A DNA stretch of 64,000 nt from the NCBI RefSeq assembly GCF_050920415.1, contig NZ_CP169309.1. One strand, given 5' to 3'. Below are positions 23,310 through 33,739 of this stretch, piece after piece. This DNA comes from Escherichia coli (GTDB lineage: Bacteria; Pseudomonadota; Gammaproteobacteria; Enterobacterales; Enterobacteriaceae). The notes under the pieces are model-generated. The model was not told the origin of the DNA. It worked only from the letters and a program-made list of their open reading frames with translations, and did no database searches. The position numbers and the translations under genes were made by a program. Each line of letters opens with the position of its first letter. Position 1 is the first letter of the stretch.

Positions 23310-24437
23310 TTAACGGCGTCTATAGCCTTCCTCTAGCACCGCTTGTGTTCGAACGAGTTCATCCGCGAGTCGTTTTTCATCAGGTAGTTGCATCTTATAT
23401 TCGCTTGCCAGAACGGTGTTAGGCAAACCAGCCAGTGCATAATGTGCTTCTCCGACTCCTTTTTCTGCACAGAGAACCAGACCGATGGGCGGATTTTCAT
23501 CCGGTAGCGTCCAGTGCTCTTTGGCGTAGTTGAGATACATATTCATCTGTCCGGCATCGCTATAGCTGAATTTGCCCACTTTTAGATCGACGATTAGCAG
23601 GCAGCGTAAACGGCGGTGGAAAAACAGCAGATCGACACGAAACCAGTTGTCATCAATGCGTAACCTTCGCTGTCGACCAACAAAGGCAAAATCATCCCCA
23701 AGTTCCAGCATGAAATCCATCAGGTGGTTGATCAGCGCCTCCTCAAAATCGGATTCTGAGTATTCATCTTTCAATTCCAAAAATTCGAGCACAAAGGGAT
23801 CGCGTATCGCCTGTTGCGGAAGAATATGCGTCTCGGCAGGGGCGTGTTGTTGCAGCATGGCTGATTTGTCATATGACAGTAGTGTCCGCTCATAAAATTG
23901 GGTCGCAATTTGCCGCTCTAGCTGGCGGACAGACCAACCACAGCGGAGCGCCTCTTTTTCATAAAAGCTGCGGGCGTCAGCGTTTTTAACGGAAAGTAGA
24001 CGGACGTAGGTGGACCAGGGCAGTGGGAAGGATTTGGCAGACAGCGTCTGCCAAATCTTTGCCGATGGGAATTCTGCAGACGGTGTCTGCGGAATTCCCA
24101 ATGGTGTTAATTCGCCAGACACTGTCTGGCGAATTTCAACATGTTGAAAAAAGAGGTAAAAAAGCCTCATTTGGCGTAAGTTTTTTGCAGAGAACCCACG
24201 CTTATACCTTAGACTTAAATCCTTTGAGAGCCGTTTGATAAGCTGTGCACCATAAGCCGCTCTGGCCTCGCCGCCTTGTTCAAATTCGACAATCCGTCGA
24301 CCAATTTCCCAGTATGTCGCGGTCATTAACGCGTTAACGCTACGTACCGTTTCCGTGCGGGCGCTATCGACCAGGTGAATAATACCGTCGTGGATTTGCT
24401 GGTAGCCTGCTGTGGTTCCTTCTGAGAGCGATTCCAT
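23310..24437 (-). CDS. yhcG: DUF1016/YhcG-family protein with C-terminal PD-(D/E)xK nuclease-like motifs
   Basis: 375-aa ORF; C-terminal ...RIDDNWFRVDLLFF...LLIVDLKVGKF resembles a PD-(D/E)xK core; contains in-frame tandem repeats (IRQTVSGELTPLG / IPQTPSAEFPSAK / IWQTLSAKSFPLPW). Confidence 0.85.
   Translation of the reverse strand: MESLSEGTTAGYQQIHDGIIHLVDSARTETVRSVNALMTATYWEIGRRIVEFEQGGEARAAYGAQLIKRLSKDLSLRYKRGFSAKNLRQMRLFYLFFQHVEIRQTVSGELTPLGIPQTPSAEFPSAKIWQTLSAKSFPLPWSTYVRLLSVKNADARSFYEKEALRCGWSVRQLERQIATQFYERTLLSYDKSAMLQQHAPAETHILPQQAIRDPFVLEFLELKDEYSESDFEEALINHLMDFMLELGDDFAFVGRQRRLRIDDNWFRVDLLFFHRRLRCLLIVDLKVGKFSYSDAGQMNMYLNYAKEHWTLPDENPPIGLVLCAEKGVGEAHYALAGLPNTVLASEYKMQLPDEKRLADELVRTQAVLEEGYRRR
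24031..24135. repeat. Three tandem 39-bp-spaced palindromic repeats inside yhcG coding sequence
   Basis: Units GATTTGGCAGACAGCGTCTGCCAAATC (24031-24057), GGGAATTCTGCAGACGGTGTCTGCGGAATTCCC (24068-24099), AATTCGCCAGACACTGTCTGGCGAATT (24109-24135); period 39 bp = 13 codons. Confidence 0.8.
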
Positions 24438-24635
24438 TATCTGTCCCTTTATATGGCGCTGCGTTGAATAATGGGATCAGCTATACGCCGGGCATCTGCC
24501 GGTAACAATCCAGGTGGGCTTGTTACATGGGTTTTCTTCACGTTATGCGAGGCGCTTTCCAGCAATTGTGCTGTAACGTTGTGCTGAAGATGAAGCAAAT
24601 AAAAAGGCCGGAGCGGGCGCATCCGACCAGAATTT

Positions 24636-25805
24636 TCAGGAAGTTTCTCTTGCTGTCACTACGCCATTTTGCGCAGCCCACAGATTCACATCTTCCTTAC
24701 GAATGGCGGCGGCCATCATGCCGGGGAATAAATCAGGGGTACAGGCAAAGGAGGGAATACCCATGGCGGCGAGTTTTCCTGCCAGTGACCGGTCGTAAAA
24801 CGGTGCGCCTTCGTCGCTTAAGGCCAGCAGGGTAACCACCTGTACGCCGGACTGAATCAACTCACTGGCGCGTTGCAACAGATTGCGTTCCACACCACCT
24901 TCGTAGAGGTCGGAAATCAGCACCAGAATGGTATTACGCGGATCGCGAATCAAAGACTGGCAGTAACCTACCGCGCGGTTGATGTCGGTGCCGCCGCCCA
25001 GCTGCACGCCAAACAGCAGCTCTACCGGATCGTCGAGCTTCTCTGTCATATCAACCACTGCGGTGTCGAAAACCACCAGATGCGTTTTTACCGCCGGGAG
25101 CGATGCCATTACTGCGCCAAAAATACTGGAATAGACCACCGAGGAGGCCATCGACCCACTCTGGTCGATACATAAAATGATCTCCTTTTGCGTGCGTTGA
25201 GACTTGCGCCCGTAGCCGATTAACGTTTCAGGAACAATACTTTTGTACTCTTCCTGCCAGTGGCGCAGGTTGGCGCGAATGGTGCGCTGCCAGTCAATTT
25301 CCGCGTGGCGCGGGCGACGATTACGTACCGCACGATTAAGAGCGCCGCTTACCGCGCTACGCATTGGCTCTTCAAGCTGTTTCATCAATTGCTCGACAAC
25401 TTTACGCACCACAATCCTGGCGGTTTCTTTGGTTTTGGCCGGAATTACGCCATTCAGCGACATCAGCGTGGAGACCAGATGAACATCAGGCTGGACGTTT
25501 GCCAGCATCTCTGGCTCCAGCAACATACTGTGCAAATTAAGACGTTCAAAGGCGTCTTTTTGCATCACCTGAACCACAGAAGAGGGGAAATACTGGCGAA
25601 TATCACCCAGCCAGCGAGCGACTTTGGGTGACGATCCACCCGTGCCGCCGCGTAATCCATGTTTACCGTCTGGCTGATAGAGCGCCGCCAGCGCGGCATC
25701 AATCGCGGACTCTCTGGCATCCAGCGCCACGTTACAGGCATTGTCGGCATCTTCTCCAAGGATCAGACGCCAGCGGCGCAGCCGTTCCATCTCGTTACTC
25801 GACAT
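24636..25805 (-). CDS. von Willebrand factor A (vWA) domain protein with MIDAS motif; YehP-like
   Basis: 389-aa ORF; DxSxS MIDAS motif in ILCIDQSGSM; last gene of the five-gene operon; overlaps upstream gene by 11 nt; SD-like GGGAA before ATG. Confidence 0.8.
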   Translation of the reverse strand: MSSNEMERLRRWRLILGEDADNACNVALDARESAIDAALAALYQPDGKHGLRGGTGGSSPKVARWLGDIRQYFPSSVVQVMQKDAFERLNLHSMLLEPEMLANVQPDVHLVSTLMSLNGVIPAKTKETARIVVRKVVEQLMKQLEEPMRSAVSGALNRAVRNRRPRHAEIDWQRTIRANLRHWQEEYKSIVPETLIGYGRKSQRTQKEIILCIDQSGSMASSVVYSSIFGAVMASLPAVKTHLVVFDTAVVDMTEKLDDPVELLFGVQLGGGTDINRAVGYCQSLIRDPRNTILVLISDLYEGGVERNLLQRASELIQSGVQVVTLLALSDEGAPFYDRSLAGKLAAMGIPSFACTPDLFPGMMAAAIRKEDVNLWAAQNGVVTARETS

Positions 25806-28044
25806 GATTTTCCCTTTCGTGTGGTGGCAAAGCCAGAATGCGGCGCAGTAGCGGCAGCATTAACGCGGCACGCTGTTCATCCCATATACCGCTGGTCTCT
25901 TCTTGCTGCGCGACACGCTCGCCCTGCGCGGCGCGTTCGCCTAACTGGCGGCGTTCCGGGCTGGAAAAACGGCCGAATGTCCGCCGCAGCATCGGCAGGA
26001 TCCGGGTGAAGTGATTGTCGTTCAGGCCGCTTAGCCAGGCATCGATCAACTGCCATAATTCGCTATTGTGCAGTAGCACCATCGCGCTGTCGTTGAGGAA
26101 ACCTTCCGCCCATGCGGCACTTTCCGCCGGGGGATTGGCTGGCGATAGCGCCAGGTTCATCAGCGTGGTGATCCGTTCTGTCGTTAACGTTTGCAGATCA
26201 AACAACAGGCGCGTCGCCGTTCCGCGAAGCAGCGCGTGTGCGGTACTGCCCTCTGCCAGCACCATCAACGCCTGCAACCAGCCCGCCAACAGATCTTCGT
26301 TATCCAGCAACCGCAGCGCGGCGTGAGCGTCGATAACTTTTTCTCTCATACTGGCGGCGCTGTCGTCGTTGAGCGCCGAACAGGCACCGGGTAGGGCGAT
26401 GGCGGCGCGCGGGGCGAGGCTCATCAGTACCTGCATTACCATACCAGAGTCGGTCTGGCGCACGTTGCCGTAGCGGACAATCGCCACCAGCGGTGCCAGG
26501 GCTTCCAGCAACTGTTCGATATTGCCCTGAGTGGCAGCCAGTGATTCCAGTGTATTGGCGATGGGGGCAATCGCGGCCTGTAAATCGGCCAGTAGCACTT
26601 GTTGGATAAGCTTTGCCAGTTCCGGCAGCGTGCTGGCGTATTGCGCCCTCACAATGGCATAGCGGGAGCTGGCCTGCTCAATGCTGTTACCCCAACGGCT
26701 GGCGGTAATGATGTTCATTGCCAGTGCCGGTTCCCAGCGCAGCGACCAGACTTCGTGGAACGTCCCTTTGCTGTTATTTCCTTGTCCAGCCAGACGGCCC
26801 CAGGAAATGTCGAGTAAGGTCAGGCGATGCAGTAAATGGCTACGCGCCAGATCGCCGGGTTTGCGCAGATCAAGATCCAGCACTTTTTCGCTGGCTTCTG
26901 CCTTCAGGCGCAGCGTTTTTTGCTGTTGCGTAATGTCGCGTTGGAGCGGCACGACGGGCGTATCATCCGGTACGCTTCCCAGCGCGTCGCCGACAATTAA
27001 CTTCTGGCGAATCATCTGCATTGGCGCGCTTTCGCCCATACACACTACGGTTTGCAGCGCTTCGCAAAGTTCGTCAAGCCCCGGCTGCGGGTGATGGCGC
27101 ATAATCGCCAGCGTCTGCGCCAGCCGCGCCGCTTCGATAATGTGGGCGCTGGAACAGTCGAGATCGGCTTCGCGAAACAGCCTTGCCGCGCGTGACAGCC
27201 AGCCGATATCGCGGTGAGAAGCGCCCTGATAACGCCACAGATGATCGTACCATTCCGGTGACACCACCCCTGCGCCATAACCGCTGGCGCGGCTTAACGC
27301 CTCGTAGCTCCAGGGCGTCCAGGCTGCCGCGACCTTGCACTTCGGCAAATTTTTCAGCAGTTCGTTATCATTCTTTGCGGGCGGCAGGTTTTCCAGCGCC
27401 GGAACGTGCCACGCACCGCAGACTACCGCGATGCGCGAGAAGCCCTCTTTTTTCGCCTGACGTAGCGTCTTGCGCATATACGCTTCACGCAGTTGATCTC
27501 TGGCTGAGTTTCGGGCTTCGGGAGTTGCCTGGCGTAGGGCAATCATCGCCTCGCGAATCGCCTCGAACAGAGACAAATCATCTTCGCGTTCCTCTACTCT
27601 GTGGCTCCACCAGCTTTCCCCATCGGTGTAACCGGCGGCGCGGCCCAGCCAGTCCAGCGGATCGCCGTCGGGACTGGCTTCAACGGCATCATCGTCATCG
27701 CTCTCTTTTTCGTCATCAAGCGCGAACTGATGACTGATGGGCAAGTCCATAAAGCGCACGGCGATATTTTGCTCAAAACCATAGCGCAGCGCCTGCCATT
27801 CCGGGGAGAACGCCGCAAAGGGGTAAAACGCGGCGTGATGTGAGTCGTCCGGGGCATAAATCAGTAGCGCGACCGGCGGTTGCATCTGTTCATGCTGCAT
27901 GAAAGGCAGGATGGATTCGCCGTCGGGCGGCCCTTCCACCAGCAGGCAGTCGGGCTGTAGCGTCTCCAGCGCCTTTCGCAGGCTGCGCGCGCAGCCAGGG
28001 CCATGGTGACGGATGCCAAACAAATGAACGGTTTGTTCAGTCAT
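25795..28044 (-). CDS. Large uncharacterised protein (749 aa) with N-terminal TraB/PrgY/GumN (TIKI)-like motifs; YehM-like by size and position
   Basis: N-terminal VHLFGIRHHGPG...DCLLVEGPPD and later RIAVVCGAWHVPAL resemble the two conserved motif blocks of the TraB/TIKI family; long helical C-terminal region; domain call from motif recognition only. Confidence 0.7.
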   Translation of the reverse strand: MTEQTVHLFGIRHHGPGCARSLRKALETLQPDCLLVEGPPDGESILPFMQHEQMQPPVALLIYAPDDSHHAAFYPFAAFSPEWQALRYGFEQNIAVRFMDLPISHQFALDDEKESDDDDAVEASPDGDPLDWLGRAAGYTDGESWWSHRVEEREDDLSLFEAIREAMIALRQATPEARNSARDQLREAYMRKTLRQAKKEGFSRIAVVCGAWHVPALENLPPAKNDNELLKNLPKCKVAAAWTPWSYEALSRASGYGAGVVSPEWYDHLWRYQGASHRDIGWLSRAARLFREADLDCSSAHIIEAARLAQTLAIMRHHPQPGLDELCEALQTVVCMGESAPMQMIRQKLIVGDALGSVPDDTPVVPLQRDITQQQKTLRLKAEASEKVLDLDLRKPGDLARSHLLHRLTLLDISWGRLAGQGNNSKGTFHEVWSLRWEPALAMNIITASRWGNSIEQASSRYAIVRAQYASTLPELAKLIQQVLLADLQAAIAPIANTLESLAATQGNIEQLLEALAPLVAIVRYGNVRQTDSGMVMQVLMSLAPRAAIALPGACSALNDDSAASMREKVIDAHAALRLLDNEDLLAGWLQALMVLAEGSTAHALLRGTATRLLFDLQTLTTERITTLMNLALSPANPPAESAAWAEGFLNDSAMVLLHNSELWQLIDAWLSGLNDNHFTRILPMLRRTFGRFSSPERRQLGERAAQGERVAQQEETSGIWDEQRAALMLPLLRRILALPPHERENHVE

Positions 28045-28061
28045 AGTGGTTGCCTTGCTGA

Positions 28062-29156
28062 TTACACAATTTCGCGGCAGGCGCGATAGAGATCGTTCCA
28101 GTCGCTGCGCTCTTTGACGATAGTTTCCAGATATTCACGCCATACCACGTCGTCCTGCACGGGATCTTTTACCACCGCGCCGATAAGGCTTGCGGCGATA
28201 TCCCGCGGATGCAGCACGCCGTCGCCAAAATGGCCCGCCAGCGCCATACCGTTGTTGATAACGGAGATCGCCTCCGCGGTGCTGAGAGTACTGGTTGGCG
28301 ACTTAATTTTCGTTTTGCCGTCAACCGTCAGGCCGTTTCGCAGTTCGCGGAAGATTTGCACGACTCGCTGGATCTCTTTAAGCGCTGGCGGTTTGGCAGG
28401 AAGTGCCAGCGCCTGACCCAGTTCGGCGACGCGGCGAGTGACAATGTTAATCTCTTCTTCTTCGCTGGCGGGTACGGGCAAAATGACCGTGTTGAAACGA
28501 CGTTTAAGCGCGGAAGAAAGCTCGTTAACGCCTTTATCCCGGTTGTTGGCGGTGGCGATAACGTTAAAGCCGCGCGTCGCCTGGACCTCTTCATTCAGTT
28601 CGGGGATAGGCAGCGTTTTTTCCGACAGGATCGTGATCAGCGTGTCCTGAACATCAGCAGGAATACGCGTCAGCTCTTCTACGCGTGCAATCTGCCCGCG
28701 CGCCATCGCCCGCATCAACGGACTTTCTACCAGCGCCAAACGTGACGGACCTTTAGAGAGCAACTCCGCGTAGTTCCAGCCATAACGCATTTGTTCTTCA
28801 CCGGTGCCTGCGGTGCCCTGAATAATTAACGTTGAGTCGCCGCTGATGGCAGCCGCCAGATGTTCAGATACCCAGGATTTCGCAGTGCCGGGTACGCCAT
28901 ACAACAGCAGTGCGCGATCGGTTGGCAGCGTGGCAACGGCGGTTTCGATAATCCGCCGGTTGCCGATATATTTCGGCGTGACCTCAAAGCCATTTTCCAG
29001 CTGCCCGCCCAACAGATAGGTGGCGACGGACCATGGAGAAATGGCCCAGTTTTCCGGGCGCGGATGAGTATCGTTTTTTTGCAGCTCATCCAGTTCTTCA
29101 GCAAATTGTTGTTCGGCATGTCGGCGTAAAACGGCGGCAGTAGCGGTAGCATTCAT
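28062..29156 (-). CDS. MoxR-type AAA+ ATPase (YehL-like)
   Basis: 364-aa ORF; Walker A GVPGTAKS; sensor-1-like FNVIATANNRD; ATGA overlap with upstream gene. Confidence 0.82.
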   Translation of the reverse strand: MNATATAAVLRRHAEQQFAEELDELQKNDTHPRPENWAISPWSVATYLLGGQLENGFEVTPKYIGNRRIIETAVATLPTDRALLLYGVPGTAKSWVSEHLAAAISGDSTLIIQGTAGTGEEQMRYGWNYAELLSKGPSRLALVESPLMRAMARGQIARVEELTRIPADVQDTLITILSEKTLPIPELNEEVQATRGFNVIATANNRDKGVNELSSALKRRFNTVILPVPASEEEEINIVTRRVAELGQALALPAKPPALKEIQRVVQIFRELRNGLTVDGKTKIKSPTSTLSTAEAISVINNGMALAGHFGDGVLHPRDIAASLIGAVVKDPVQDDVVWREYLETIVKERSDWNDLYRACREIV

Positions 29157-30757
29157 AAAGTGGTTTCTCCGACAAAAAGCGAATTAAGTTGAATTCGGTT
29201 CGCCAGCGCGGCGCTCAGGGCAGTAAAGGCTGCCTCGCAATAAGGCGTTTGTTGTGCGTCGTGCGGCCACTTGTCAATGACATCATTGAGGACTTCGGGG
29301 GCCAGCAGGCAGGCGAAATCACTCATCACATGGCGCAGGGCGTAGTCAAAGCGCGCGGAATCATATTTCACCCAACGGTGTAGCTCCGTGACCATTTGCT
29401 GGCTCAGGCGCAGGCTAAAGAGCGACGCATCCAGCGGTAACAGGCTGATGTAGCGATGTAAATGTTCGCCGCCCACCACTGAGAACAATGACCGTAACAT
29501 CGGCTCGTGTTCTTCTACAGGCAGACATTGCAAAAGCTCAAAGGCGTTAATCTTCACGCCTGCAGGATGATGAATGCTCATTCCGACGGGCAGCATGGCG
29601 AGAAACGCCTGCGCCCACTGCGGATTTTTTTCGCGCAGTACGGCGTGATACCAGGCGCGCAGTAGCGCCTTCTGCCAGTCGGTTTTCCCGGCCCAGCGCA
29701 GCAGTTCAACGGGGGTAGCCTGCAGTTGCGTTTGCCACCAGTCGAGCGGAACCGCTGCAACTATCTGATACAGCCACCATGCGCGCTGGCCCAACTTTTC
29801 GCCTTTGGGCTTAGTTTCTTCCAGCGCATCGGCCTTCCACTCTGGTAAGAACGCCTCCGGGGCATCAAGGGCGACGTGCAGCATTTTTTCTTTGCCGGAT
29901 AAGCCTTTTAGCCTTTCAAGTAAGGTCTCAGGAGCGGGGGATGAACTGAGCAACGGCGCTAACCGAGACTTCATGCGCGAGATCCAGGCGCTTTCCGGCA
30001 GACAACACAGTAACCGTGCCGCAGTTTGCCGCACCTCTTTGCTGCGATCGGATAATGTCTGTTCCAGAAAGGCTTCGTCGTGTTGGGAGATCTCCACTTC
30101 CAGCACAGCCAGCAGCTGTGCGCGTTCGCGGGCATCCAGCGAACTCATCTCCTGCGCCAGCCGATCGCGACCCTGTTCCGGGGCGCGAATGCGCATTTGC
30201 GTCAGATATTGCAGACGCTGTTCGGACGTGCCGTGCAGCCACATTTCTTCATCCAGCGGAGCGTCAACGGAGGCAAGAAAATAGCGCCAGTCGGCGTTAA
30301 TTTGCGCCAGCCAGCGCCCGCGAGCGCCGAGGACATTGGGCAGAATGCCGCGTATTGATGGATTTTGTACGCCGTAATTCAGCAGTGCCGGTAACAGCAG
30401 GGGCGGAGAAAGAAGCTGACGCTGGACCAGGTGATCAAGCGCTGACCACAGTAAACGCGGCGGCCCTTCTGCCAGCAACAGATGCAGCAGTCCCGCAAAA
30501 GCCGGGTTGTTTATTGGCTCGGCATTTTCTTTATCGATTTCCGGCAGCGGTGCGGGGTCAATCGCCTGCGGCACCCAGCCAGCCAGATGGCAGAGCGCCA
30601 GAACGCCCGCCGAGCGCAGTAGCTGTTGCTCTGCGGATGTGTTATTCGCCAGTTCAGACAGTAACAGCCCAATCTCACTTTGCGACGCCGACGGTGTGAA
30701 CGCTTTTTTGTCTGTGCCGAGTAGCGCTGTGCGGGTTAAATTTTGCCATTCGTTCAT
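29153..30757 (-). CDS. Uncharacterised protein (about 534 aa), helical, no recognised catalytic motif
   Basis: Long ORF (ORF track 29153-30778); preferred start ATG at 30757, which has GGAGG 7 nt upstream and forms an ATGA overlap with the stop of the SWIM gene. Confidence 0.7.
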   Translation of the reverse strand: MNEWQNLTRTALLGTDKKAFTPSASQSEIGLLLSELANNTSAEQQLLRSAGVLALCHLAGWVPQAIDPAPLPEIDKENAEPINNPAFAGLLHLLLAEGPPRLLWSALDHLVQRQLLSPPLLLPALLNYGVQNPSIRGILPNVLGARGRWLAQINADWRYFLASVDAPLDEEMWLHGTSEQRLQYLTQMRIRAPEQGRDRLAQEMSSLDARERAQLLAVLEVEISQHDEAFLEQTLSDRSKEVRQTAARLLCCLPESAWISRMKSRLAPLLSSSPAPETLLERLKGLSGKEKMLHVALDAPEAFLPEWKADALEETKPKGEKLGQRAWWLYQIVAAVPLDWWQTQLQATPVELLRWAGKTDWQKALLRAWYHAVLREKNPQWAQAFLAMLPVGMSIHHPAGVKINAFELLQCLPVEEHEPMLRSLFSVVGGEHLHRYISLLPLDASLFSLRLSQQMVTELHRWVKYDSARFDYALRHVMSDFACLLAPEVLNDVIDKWPHDAQQTPYCEAAFTALSAALANRIQLNSLFVGETTL

Positions 30758-32076
30758 TGTGCGCCTCCGGTTGCCCAAATCACGCTACCGGCAAGCCAGG
30801 CGCTACAGGGCGTCAGCTGCTGACCATCCCATTCCCCCATTAGCATAAACGGCGCGCCGCCGCTGGCCGCCAGTAACCGCCAACCCTCGTCCGACGACAG
30901 GTGCGTCGGTAAGTGCTGGCCCTGTGTCGAGACGAATCGCCAGCCGCTCTCGTGCGGGTAAATCAATATTTCGCTTACTCGCAGCGGCAGAGGCCATTGC
31001 CAGGGATTCGCGCTAAGCCGCTGCGCCATGTCATGCAGCGCGTCCGGGAGGGGTAATTCTGCAAGCGGGAATCTTTCACCGCGGGTAAACGGCTCCACAA
31101 TCCGCGCCCGTAGCGGTGATGCGCCAGGGAAAAAGGCAAGCGCGCCCTGGCAGACTTGCCCGGTGATAAAGTGCTGGGGAAAGTTTTTACCACCGTGTGA
31201 ATAGTCCAGCAGTAGCGCGGTGCGGTGGCTCTTTTCTCCGTACAGCCAGACCCGGCGTCGCCACAGATTATTCTCTTCTTGCGCGCTTTGGCCTAAGACC
31301 TGCCAGTTATCAAGGCAGGTTAGTCCGTCAGCGATGTCATGTTTATCCGGGGTTATTCCCAATGCTGCATGGAGATCGCTAAGTTGTGCCGGGGATAACA
31401 TTTGTTGCTGGCGCCAGGCGTCAATAATCAGCTGTAGCTGCCCCAGTTCTTTGCACAGGCTCGATGGCCATACCTCGGCGGTAGTAAAAAGAGTGGTCAG
31501 ATTGTTCAGGCGAGCGGCAATTCCCGGTAGTTGAGCGTCGACCATGCGGGCGGCGATCCCGGCAAAAGGCAACTGTTGTGCAGAGATCTGCGCCAGACCG
31601 TGGCGGATCAGGTCGTGCATCCACTGTTCGAGGAAATCCAGCCCCGCCGTCATTTTTTGGTTGCGTGCCGCTTCCCGTTTGGCGGCAGCCTGCGGGTCGG
31701 CAGCTTTTGCCTCAGCCTGCTCTTTCTTTTCTTCTTTGCGAACCGCTCGCTGCTGGCGCGAGGTTAGCCACTCGCTTACCCATTCCGGCGGCTCGCCAGC
31801 GGTGAAACTTGCGGTGTGTTGCACCTGGAGCAAAAGCAACGCAAGGCTATGTTTACAGGGGAATTTACGGCTGGGGCAGGAACATTTACAGGCCAGATCC
31901 TGCCTGTCGACCCGTACCTGATAAGGGCGGGAGCCGCTGCCTTTACATTCTCCCCAGAACGCGGTCTCGCTATATCCCAGCGTCGGCCATTTTGCGGGGG
32001 CAACCAGGCCACGAGCCGCTTTAACCGAGGCGTCATCGGGCGCCAGGGCTTGCACTGATTCAACGGTCAGTTCCAT
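30754..32076 (-). CDS. SWIM zinc-finger domain protein (YehQ-like), first gene of operon
   Basis: 440-aa ORF; CxCxnCxH signature in DLACKCSCPSRKFPCKHSLALL; remainder unrecognised. Confidence 0.75.
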   Translation of the reverse strand: MELTVESVQALAPDDASVKAARGLVAPAKWPTLGYSETAFWGECKGSGSRPYQVRVDRQDLACKCSCPSRKFPCKHSLALLLLQVQHTASFTAGEPPEWVSEWLTSRQQRAVRKEEKKEQAEAKAADPQAAAKREAARNQKMTAGLDFLEQWMHDLIRHGLAQISAQQLPFAGIAARMVDAQLPGIAARLNNLTTLFTTAEVWPSSLCKELGQLQLIIDAWRQQQMLSPAQLSDLHAALGITPDKHDIADGLTCLDNWQVLGQSAQEENNLWRRRVWLYGEKSHRTALLLDYSHGGKNFPQHFITGQVCQGALAFFPGASPLRARIVEPFTRGERFPLAELPLPDALHDMAQRLSANPWQWPLPLRVSEILIYPHESGWRFVSTQGQHLPTHLSSDEGWRLLAASGGAPFMLMGEWDGQQLTPCSAWLAGSVIWATGGAQ

Positions 32077-32239
32077 TACAATTCTCTATTGGCGTGGGGA
32101 AATCGATGGGGTCAAGGAGGCGTTAAGCAAAGCAGGAGGAGACTGTTTTCCGTAACAGCGTATTGCGCGTCCATCGCAAATTTGTAGTGAGTATAGCGGG
32201 CGGTAAATTCAGGAAACAATGGCGGATAGCGGAAAGTGT

Positions 32240-32298
32240 AGTTTTTCGGAAAAAGATAACTTTATCCCGTGTAACCCGTTTTAAGCGGGCTACACGGG
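32240..32298 (-). terminator. Putative terminator downstream of gltD
   Basis: Minus-strand hairpin CCCGTGTAGCCCGCTTAAAACGGGTTACACGGG 8 nt after gltD stop, followed after a spacer by a T5 run; U-tract not directly adjacent. Confidence 0.4.
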
Positions 32299-32308
32299 AG
32301 GCTGCAAT

Positions 32309-33739
<1,431 letters not shown>

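Follow-up and report, generated by a model that had tools for sequence, protein, structure and literature searches.

A SWIM zinc-finger protein at the head of a conserved five-gene MoxR/VWA cassette of Escherichia coli, and its possible role as an assembly and targeting adaptor

The subject of this report is a gene for a SWIM zinc-finger family protein, and the compact cassette of genes that it heads, in a 64,000-nucleotide stretch of Escherichia coli DNA (contig NZ_CP169309.1, assembly GCF_050920415.1); this whole stretch, as analysed, is hereafter called the window. A preliminary description, made from the sequence alone, had noticed a CxCxnCxH motif near the N-terminus of a 440-amino-acid protein at 30754-32076 and had taken the gene to head an operon. 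The protein is indeed encoded there, on the minus strand: the plus-strand reading of 30754-32076 contains many stop codons, and the minus-strand frame opens at ATG and codes for 440 amino acids. An identical protein from an identical genome, RefSeq WP_000424193.1, carries the label 'SWIM zinc finger family protein'. The gene is the first of five co-directional minus-strand genes, the ends of which overlap or nearly abut, in the order SWIM > DUF5691 > AAA_5 > DUF5682 > VWA_CoxE. The features of the locus are as follows.

30754..32076, minus strand: SWIM zinc-finger family protein gene, 440 amino acids, cassette gene 1 (open reading frame and translation, Pfam, RefSeq WP_000424193.1)
31831..31902, minus strand: SWIM finger, residues 59-82 (Pfam match, invariant ligand residues, modelled strand and helix)
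within 31849-31884, minus strand: codons of the ligand residues C65, C67, C74 and H76
31651..31755, minus strand: K/E/A-rich segment, residues 108-142 (composition A10 K6 Q5 E5 R4; modelled as helix)
30757..31326, minus strand: C-terminal beta-rich domain, residues 251-440 (two probable OB-like barrels; the protein varies most here)
29153..30757, minus strand: DUF5691 protein gene, 534 amino acids (Pfam PF18944, E 4e-121)
28062..29156, minus strand: MoxR-class AAA+ ATPase gene (AAA_5), 364 amino acids, YehL paralogue (Pfam AAA_5, E 2e-38)
25795..28044, minus strand: DUF5682 protein gene, 749 amino acids, YehM paralogue; predicted N-terminal TIKI/TraB-like fold, then helical repeats (PF18934, E 7e-268)
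24636..25805, minus strand: VWA_CoxE protein gene, 389 amino acids, YehP paralogue (Pfam VWA_CoxE, E 4e-52)
32077..32308, minus strand: intergenic region upstream of the SWIM gene (sequence read directly)

Direct reading of the sequence showed that the SWIM stop codon and the DUF5691 start codon overlap as ATGA, and such start/stop overlaps between the cassette genes indicate coupled translation. Roughly 10 bases past the stop codon of gltD, an inverted repeat was found at 32266-32298, with a 13-bp stem (including one G-T pair) and a 7-nucleotide loop, which by its sequence looks like the gltBD terminator; a terminator scan did not report it, as its T-run does not directly adjoin the stem. Since this repeat separates the upstream operon, the cassette is probably transcribed on its own. 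Its own promoter presumably lies within 32077-32308, and a simple promoter scan of that region returned no minus-strand consensus promoter. The position of the SWIM gene at the head of an operon is, therefore, borne out by the gene order, the ATGA overlap and the repeat that divides it from gltD. No transmembrane-like segment was detected in any of the five proteins.

The zinc finger itself was then examined by profile and by conservation. The Pfam SWIM profile (PF04434) covered residues 59-82 with an E-value of 1.2e-6 and a score of 28.4 (hmmscan), in agreement with the early recognition of the motif; the peptide quoted at that time, DLACKCSCPSRKFPCKHSLALL, corresponds to residues 60-81. The protein was aligned with 71 relatives (72 sequences), mostly representatives of 50%-identity clusters, that were 34-54% identical to the query. 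The four ligand residues of C65-x-C67-x6-C74-x-H76 were invariant throughout this alignment, as were W30, W41, G42, G46, Y52, P73 and K75, with C44 nearly so; moreover, the CxC..CxH motif occurred within the first 140 amino acids in 269 of the 269 homologues fetched. This invariance, on which the preliminary description had staked its zinc finger, indicates that the motif is real and not a product of chance. Overall, conservation of the protein peaks at the small sheet and the finger (residues 31-95) and declines steadily to the last barrel. Zinc in a SWIM finger is expected to play a structural role, and we infer that the finger of this protein binds it.

The AlphaFold2 model built from the 72-sequence alignment had a mean predicted local distance difference test score (pLDDT) of 94.6 and a predicted template modelling score (pTM) of 0.81. 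In the model, residues 1-86 comprise a short N-terminal helical segment, the small sheet and the finger, in which C65 lies on strand 63-65 and C74 and H76 lie where helix 75-86 begins; in other words, the Cys pair sits on a beta element and the Cys/His pair at the start of a helix, which is the arrangement of the SWIM finger fold. Two long helices follow (98-123 and 128-159, block pLDDT 84-98), and then a helical bundle (160-249) and a beta-rich C-terminal region (253-435), the strand and helix order of which reads as two barrels. Two claims of the preliminary description were only partly upheld by these results. The stretch it had called a central low-complexity linker is indeed K/E/A-rich (the quoted part being residues 114-141), and is the least conserved portion of the N-terminal half, but it is contained in the two long modelled helices and is, therefore, not a linker in the model. 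Similarly, the C-terminal region, which had been described as Trp-rich and otherwise unrecognisable, is Trp-rich, as 10 of the 17 tryptophans (3.9% of the protein) fall in residues 245-440, with 11 of the 17 positions at least 83% conserved in the family; nonetheless, it is not unrecognisable, since it was confidently modelled as beta-rich and gave OB-fold-like structural matches in the PDB, DNA-binding proteins included. The predicted order of elements in the second barrel, namely beta1-3/helix/beta4-5, is typical of OB folds, and the OB assignment of this domain is offered tentatively on the basis of the model.

Homology to proteins of known structure was limited, in that a PDB sequence search with the SWIM protein profile gave no match and a fold search of AFDB50 returned members of the same family only. 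In a structure search with the SWIM module, the best PDB match was human ZSWIM8, a substrate receptor of a CUL3 ubiquitin ligase, the SWIM domain of which organises assembly. This likeness is structural and local only: the cassette protein has no BC-box or cullin-box by Pfam, and its partner genes are of the AAA+/VWA type, not ubiquitin-system genes.

The Walker and MIDAS motifs of the partner proteins are intact. In the ATPase, the invariant residues comprise the Walker A sequence GxPGTxK, the EE Walker B, N204 and R219/R220, and the VWA protein has a complete and invariant MIDAS set (D214-x-S216-x-S218, T273, D299), both sets being the same in the paralogues of E. coli K-12. Sequence searches of the PDB matched the ATPase most strongly to the AAA modules of midasin (E 1e-16), and also to NorQ; they gave no match for the DUF5691, DUF5682 (with a profile as well) or VWA protein. 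The NCBIfam and PADLOC libraries had nothing for four of the five cassette proteins. Across 37 DUF5682 sequences, including YehM, H13 (in GIRHH), E37, E82, R186-E187 and G210..H213 are invariant, and the N-terminal domain shows the TIKI fold, after which come about 480 amino acids of helical repeats. Matches of the protein included ChaN, which binds haem, and a portion of BchI, a subunit of Mg-chelatase. The protein differs from the TIKI/TraB/ChaN/erythromycin-esterase superfamily in carrying these added repeats, and Pfam provided no link from DUF5682 to TraB. DUF5682/YehM probably contributes a hydrolase-like domain, in which the catalytic equivalence of the invariant residues is putative. 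A profile search for distant DUF5682 systems lacking SWIM yielded, among the matches listed, close family members only.

The cassette was found to be widespread and rigidly organised. At E <= 0.001, the SWIM protein family spans over 3000 clusters of 50% identity, and a scan of one genome per species returned at least 600 matched stretches, with 583 of the 600 listed encoding a relative. From these 600, 80 loci were kept, on which the synteny, neighbour and cross-phylum identity figures below rest; they represent 80 species genomes in more than 10 phyla, from Proteobacteria, Verrucomicrobia, Cyanobacteria, Melainabacteria, Planctomycetes, Chloroflexi, Acidobacteria, Bacteroidota, Actinobacteria, Deinococcales and other groups. 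The order SWIM > DUF5691 > AAA > DUF5682 > VWA is preserved in nearly all of them, with similar protein lengths, as exemplified by Mailhella and Rheinheimera, where the neighbours of the cassette are ordinary genes of metabolism and regulation. Relative to their E. coli counterparts, the AAA proteins were 67-82% identical, VWA 57-79%, DUF5682 41-67%, SWIM 31-51% and DUF5691 24-38%. The constraint on AAA_5 is unusually strong for an uncharacterised accessory gene, and the conservation of the ATPase across phyla argues for a strongly constrained activity. The same E. coli ATPase that is this similar to its counterparts in Cyanobacteria, Bacteroidota, Actinobacteria, Planctomycetes and others is only 41% identical to YehL. 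Clustering of the flanking open reading frames produced only antisense artefacts and generic superfamilies (response regulators, kinases, ABC ATPases); with no further recurrent neighbour family, the cassette appears to be self-contained.

A minority of the loci have a split or interrupted cassette (L019, L026, L044, L067, L083, L046, L065 and L032). In some of the split ones, SWIM-DUF5691, with or without the AAA gene, occurs without DUF5682 and VWA within 7-10 kb, and in other, interrupted ones, several kb are inserted between cassette genes. These arrangements hint at two sub-modules.

A closer relationship between the SWIM and DUF5691 proteins was revealed by gene fusion. Several cluster representatives of 950-1120 amino acids are SWIM+DUF5691 fusions, two of which were aligned directly and two more recognised by their Pfam domains; one of the latter lies upstream of AAA_5-DUF5682-VWA, and single long open reading frames of fusion size are present in Tahibacter, Nocardia, Lysobacter and Hydrogenophaga genomes. 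Fusions of this kind in several lineages are a classic sign of two proteins that cooperate physically. The same layout recurs in a divergent Firmicute cassette, found on a gut contig and flanked by GntR, GntP and ILVD_EDD genes. Here the gene after SWIM codes for a 680-amino-acid protein that has no Pfam match and is not related to DUF5691, and AAA_5, DUF5682 and VWA_CoxE follow. Alignment of the Firmicute SWIM protein with the family is confined to residues 1-227 (hhalign probability 99.65%, E 5e-25), a region with a charged stretch at the position of the K/E/A-rich segment; the C-terminal part is not alignable. The system is, therefore, built in three layers. AAA, DUF5682 and VWA form a conserved core, the N-terminal SWIM and helical module is a second conserved layer, and the periphery, made up of the C-terminal part of the SWIM protein and the protein encoded second, is variable.

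The fusions also bear on another account of the SWIM protein, namely that it acts alone as a regulator that binds nucleic acid, perhaps controlling its own operon, and only happens to reside beside MoxR/VWA genes. SWIM fingers do occur in transposase-derived transcription factors, and the OB-like matches of the C-terminal domain include DNA-binding proteins. A bystander, however, is difficult to reconcile with fusion to DUF5691 in several lineages, with a gene that heads the same five genes across phyla, or with a reading frame that overlaps that of the next gene; in addition, the Pfam scan of the protein detected no helix-turn-helix or other sequence-specific DNA-binding domain. We consider this account very improbable.

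The same types of parts are found in the yehLMPQ genes of E. coli K-12, a relationship that had been missed in the preliminary description, where the MoxR-AAA+/VWA character of the operon also went unnoticed. YehL is an AAA_5/MoxR ATPase, YehM a DUF5682 protein, YehP a VWA_CoxE protein with MIDAS, and YehQ a SWIM protein. The cassette ATPase is 41% identical to YehL over 350 amino acids, the cassette DUF5682 protein 27% identical to YehM (E 6e-42) and the VWA protein 37% identical to YehP, and in both systems the DUF5682 gene stands between the AAA and VWA genes. The SWIM components, in contrast, do not correspond. The SWIM gene stands first in the cassette and last in yehLMPQ, YehQ carries two SWIM fingers, and comparison of the cassette SWIM protein with YehQ gave E 0.94 by BLASTP and E 0.17 by hhalign, with only the N-terminal ~90 amino acids in register; by sequence, the cassette SWIM partner belongs to a different family from YehQ. 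DUF5691 also showed no significant similarity to YehQ, and yehLMPQ has no DUF5691 counterpart. The two systems differ as well in frequency, yehLMPQ being part of the E. coli core (5209/5426 complete genomes) while the cassette is found in 33/5426. Seven MoxR subfamilies are recognised, YehL among them (PMC3893208), and nothing functional on yehLMPQ or the YehL subfamily was found in the searchable literature. Upstream of yehLMPQ, K-12 (L005, 2196000-2216000) carries yehF (a PF05406 family protein), the pseudogene yehH and yehI (DUF4132). A WGR/DUF4132 association of the SWIM cassette was considered and rejected, since no homologue of YehF or YehI was present near the cassette in the 80 loci.

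MoxR/VWA pairs are widespread, and to our knowledge a client has been established for only a few of them. In NorQ/NorD and related systems, the MoxR protein forms a hexamer and one VWA protein serves as adaptor; the MIDAS binds an acidic patch of the client, and ATP hydrolysis powers the remodelling (PMC9976466). As in the cassette, a MoxR AAA+ gene lies beside an intact-MIDAS VWA gene in NorQ/NorD, CbbQ/CbbO, CoxD/CoxE and RavA/ViaA, each of which has a defined client that is linked or acted on (cNOR, Rubisco, CO dehydrogenase and Nuo/Frd). The cassette, in contrast to these characterised pairs, has no linked client and has three extra conserved proteins, i.e., SWIM, DUF5691 and the DUF5682 protein with its predicted TIKI fold. 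The AAA_5 module of midasin/Rea1 is likewise paired with a MIDAS domain. Midasin, however, carries its six AAA modules on one giant polypeptide and works on pre-ribosomes, whereas the motor and the MIDAS of the cassette are separate small proteins, and no link of the cassette to ribosomes was found.

Given these relatives, the cassette might serve a metalloenzyme as a chaperone for cofactor insertion or maturation, comparable to NorQ/NorD, CoxD/CoxE and CobS/CobT, in which case SWIM and the ChaN-like DUF5682 would handle metal, haem or the client. Experiments have established this role for MoxR/VWA pairs, and it agrees with the membership of the VWA protein in the CoxE family, with the resemblance of the ATPase to NorQ and GvpN, with the PHROGs match of the ATPase to a family labelled porphyrin biosynthesis, and with the ChaN and BchI matches of DUF5682. 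We nevertheless regard it as quite unlikely, since no candidate client enzyme was linked in the 80 loci, the catalytic-style His/Glu of the TIKI-type DUF5682 suggest an enzyme and not a carrier, and the zinc of a SWIM finger is expected to be structural.

The place of the cassette in the E. coli genome raises a further alternative. The cassette fills the interval between gltD and yhcG, where K-12 has gltF-yhcA-yhcD-yhcE-yhcF, and this difference in content marks the slot as a replacement hot-spot. In the window the slot is 24437-32309; its K-12 version consists of gltF and the fimbrial-type yhcA-yhcD-yhcE-yhcF, with IS5 in yhcE. Directly downstream of the cassette is yhcG (23310-24437, minus strand), a PDDEXK/DUF1016 gene with a very strong match (E 2.5e-135) to PDC-S02, a candidate defence family in PADLOC; K-12 has yhcG at this site as well, so the gene does not belong to the cassette. 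The G+C content of the cassette (56-60%) is close to that of the neighbouring gltBD, and base composition is thus uninformative.

Placed in this manner, the cassette could be an anti-phage or conflict system, with a SWIM/OB sensor of foreign nucleic acid or protein, MoxR-VWA as an NTP-dependent switch, and DUF5682 as effector protease. It is patchy in E. coli (33 of the 5426 genomes), sits in a variable slot beside a gene with a defence-candidate match, is self-contained, and has putative sensor parts that evolve faster than the motor; furthermore, ternary conflict systems with MoxR and vWA are known (Kaur et al. 2020, PMC7159879). These vWA-MoxR-VMAP and iSTAND systems likewise combine a MoxR ATPase, a vWA protein and extra dedicated components in each operon, and, like the cassette, are frequent in large-genome and multicellular bacteria (such as cyanobacteria and actinobacteria). 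Pfam scans of the five cassette proteins, however, returned no VMAP-C or inactive STAND domain, the only traces being marginal nSTAND and bpMoxR matches (bpMoxR E 0.0011) in the P-loop region of the AAA protein, which is of the AAA_5 type. PADLOC-DB v2 had no match for SWIM, DUF5691, DUF5682 or VWA and only a very weak IetA match for AAA (E 0.002-0.003), so that none of the proteins had a significant match there. Effector displacement and domain shuffling, the first criterion of a conflict system (PMC7159879), were not seen: the 80 loci showed neither variable vWA effector domains nor architectural diversification, their variation being restricted to SWIM-DUF5691 fusion or occasional splitting. 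A rigid architecture, an AAA protein that is 67-82% identical across phyla, flanking genes that are ordinary metabolic and regulatory ones, and a paralogue, yehLMPQ, that is core in E. coli (5209/5426) all argue in the same direction, as does the replicon distribution, because homologues reside on chromosomes or on plasmids in only 17 records, all of them large and non-mobilizable. The cassette is, therefore, not typically mobile, and we judge a conflict role to be unlikely.

A phage origin was also rejected. The sole phage record, 'UNVERIFIED: Bacteriophage sp.' (L090, MT835988.1), which was reached through PHROGs matches for DUF5682 and VWA, reproduces a gut bacterial contig (L091) in truncated form. 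The families phrog_30700 and phrog_31592 may stem from sequences like this one.

Considering all of the above, the reading that we favour, and to which we give an even chance of being correct, is that the SWIM protein and DUF5691 jointly serve a YehL-type MoxR/VWA remodelling machine as its adaptor for assembly and targeting. This reading is founded on the analogy with NorQ/NorD-type systems and on the evidence from structure, operon, distribution and fusion. The SWIM protein would be a cytosolic, zinc-stabilised scaffold or adaptor in a self-contained five-protein machine, in which its N-terminal SWIM module and helical bundle would bind DUF5691 and dock the pair on the AAA/VWA/DUF5682 core. 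The variable C-terminal beta-barrel domain and the fast-evolving DUF5691 would recognise the target, which could be a protein or else a complex that contains nucleic acid. The MIDAS of the VWA protein would grip an acidic residue on the target or on a partner and the AAA+ hexamer would supply ATP-driven remodelling, both as in NorQ/NorD or CbbQ/CbbO, and a hydrolytic step may be contributed by DUF5682 through its TIKI-fold domain. The analysis itself shows the domain identities, the conserved residues, the operon structure, the fusions, the synteny across phyla and the paralogy to yehLMPQ; all of the physical contacts in this scheme, the direction in which information would flow and the nature of the target are what we infer. 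The suggestion in the preliminary description that the SWIM protein is the sensor or targeting component is plausible, as it is fitted by the ZSWIM8 match, the DUF5691 fusions, the drop in conservation toward the C-terminus and the conservation of residues 1-227 in the Firmicute protein.

Three observations weigh against the adaptor proposal. No client gene linked to the cassette was found in the 80 loci; the literature provided no experimental data on either this cassette or yehLMPQ; and, because similarity between the SWIM protein and YehQ is not significant beyond the finger, the paralogous system offers no functional lead.

As for novelty, the cassette proteins are already named by automated annotation, and the MoxR/VWA class and its YehL subfamily are known. 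The searchable literature, however, contained no paper that mentions DUF5691 or DUF5682 and none that joins SWIM with MoxR/VWA in one system. The cassette as a unit and the SWIM-DUF5691 partnership thus appear undescribed there. So do the resemblance of the SWIM protein in architecture to ZSWIM8 and to OB folds, and the fact that DUF5682/YehM has a TIKI-like fold. The cassette shows no new principle; it is a solid and tractable 'unknown machine'.

More broadly, the cassette represents a widespread and rigidly conserved relative of the YehL subfamily system. A more far-reaching reading, which we put forward as speculative and rather improbable, is that the cassette and yehLMPQ constitute a so far unrecognised class of ATP-dependent targeting and hydrolysis machine, in which a SWIM/OB adaptor pair would select a macromolecule, either cellular or invading, the midasin-like AAA_5/MIDAS motor would extract or remodel it and the TIKI-fold enzyme (DUF5682/YehM) would cleave it; if true, this would be a bacterial counterpart of the eukaryotic SWIM-domain receptors that present substrates to a processing machine. 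The fusion link between SWIM and DUF5691, the ZSWIM8-like module and the TIKI/TraB-like fold predicted for DUF5682/YehM turn these DUF genes into testable hypotheses, and since both the rare cassette and its core paralogue yehLMPQ are found in E. coli, the hypotheses can be tested in that organism.

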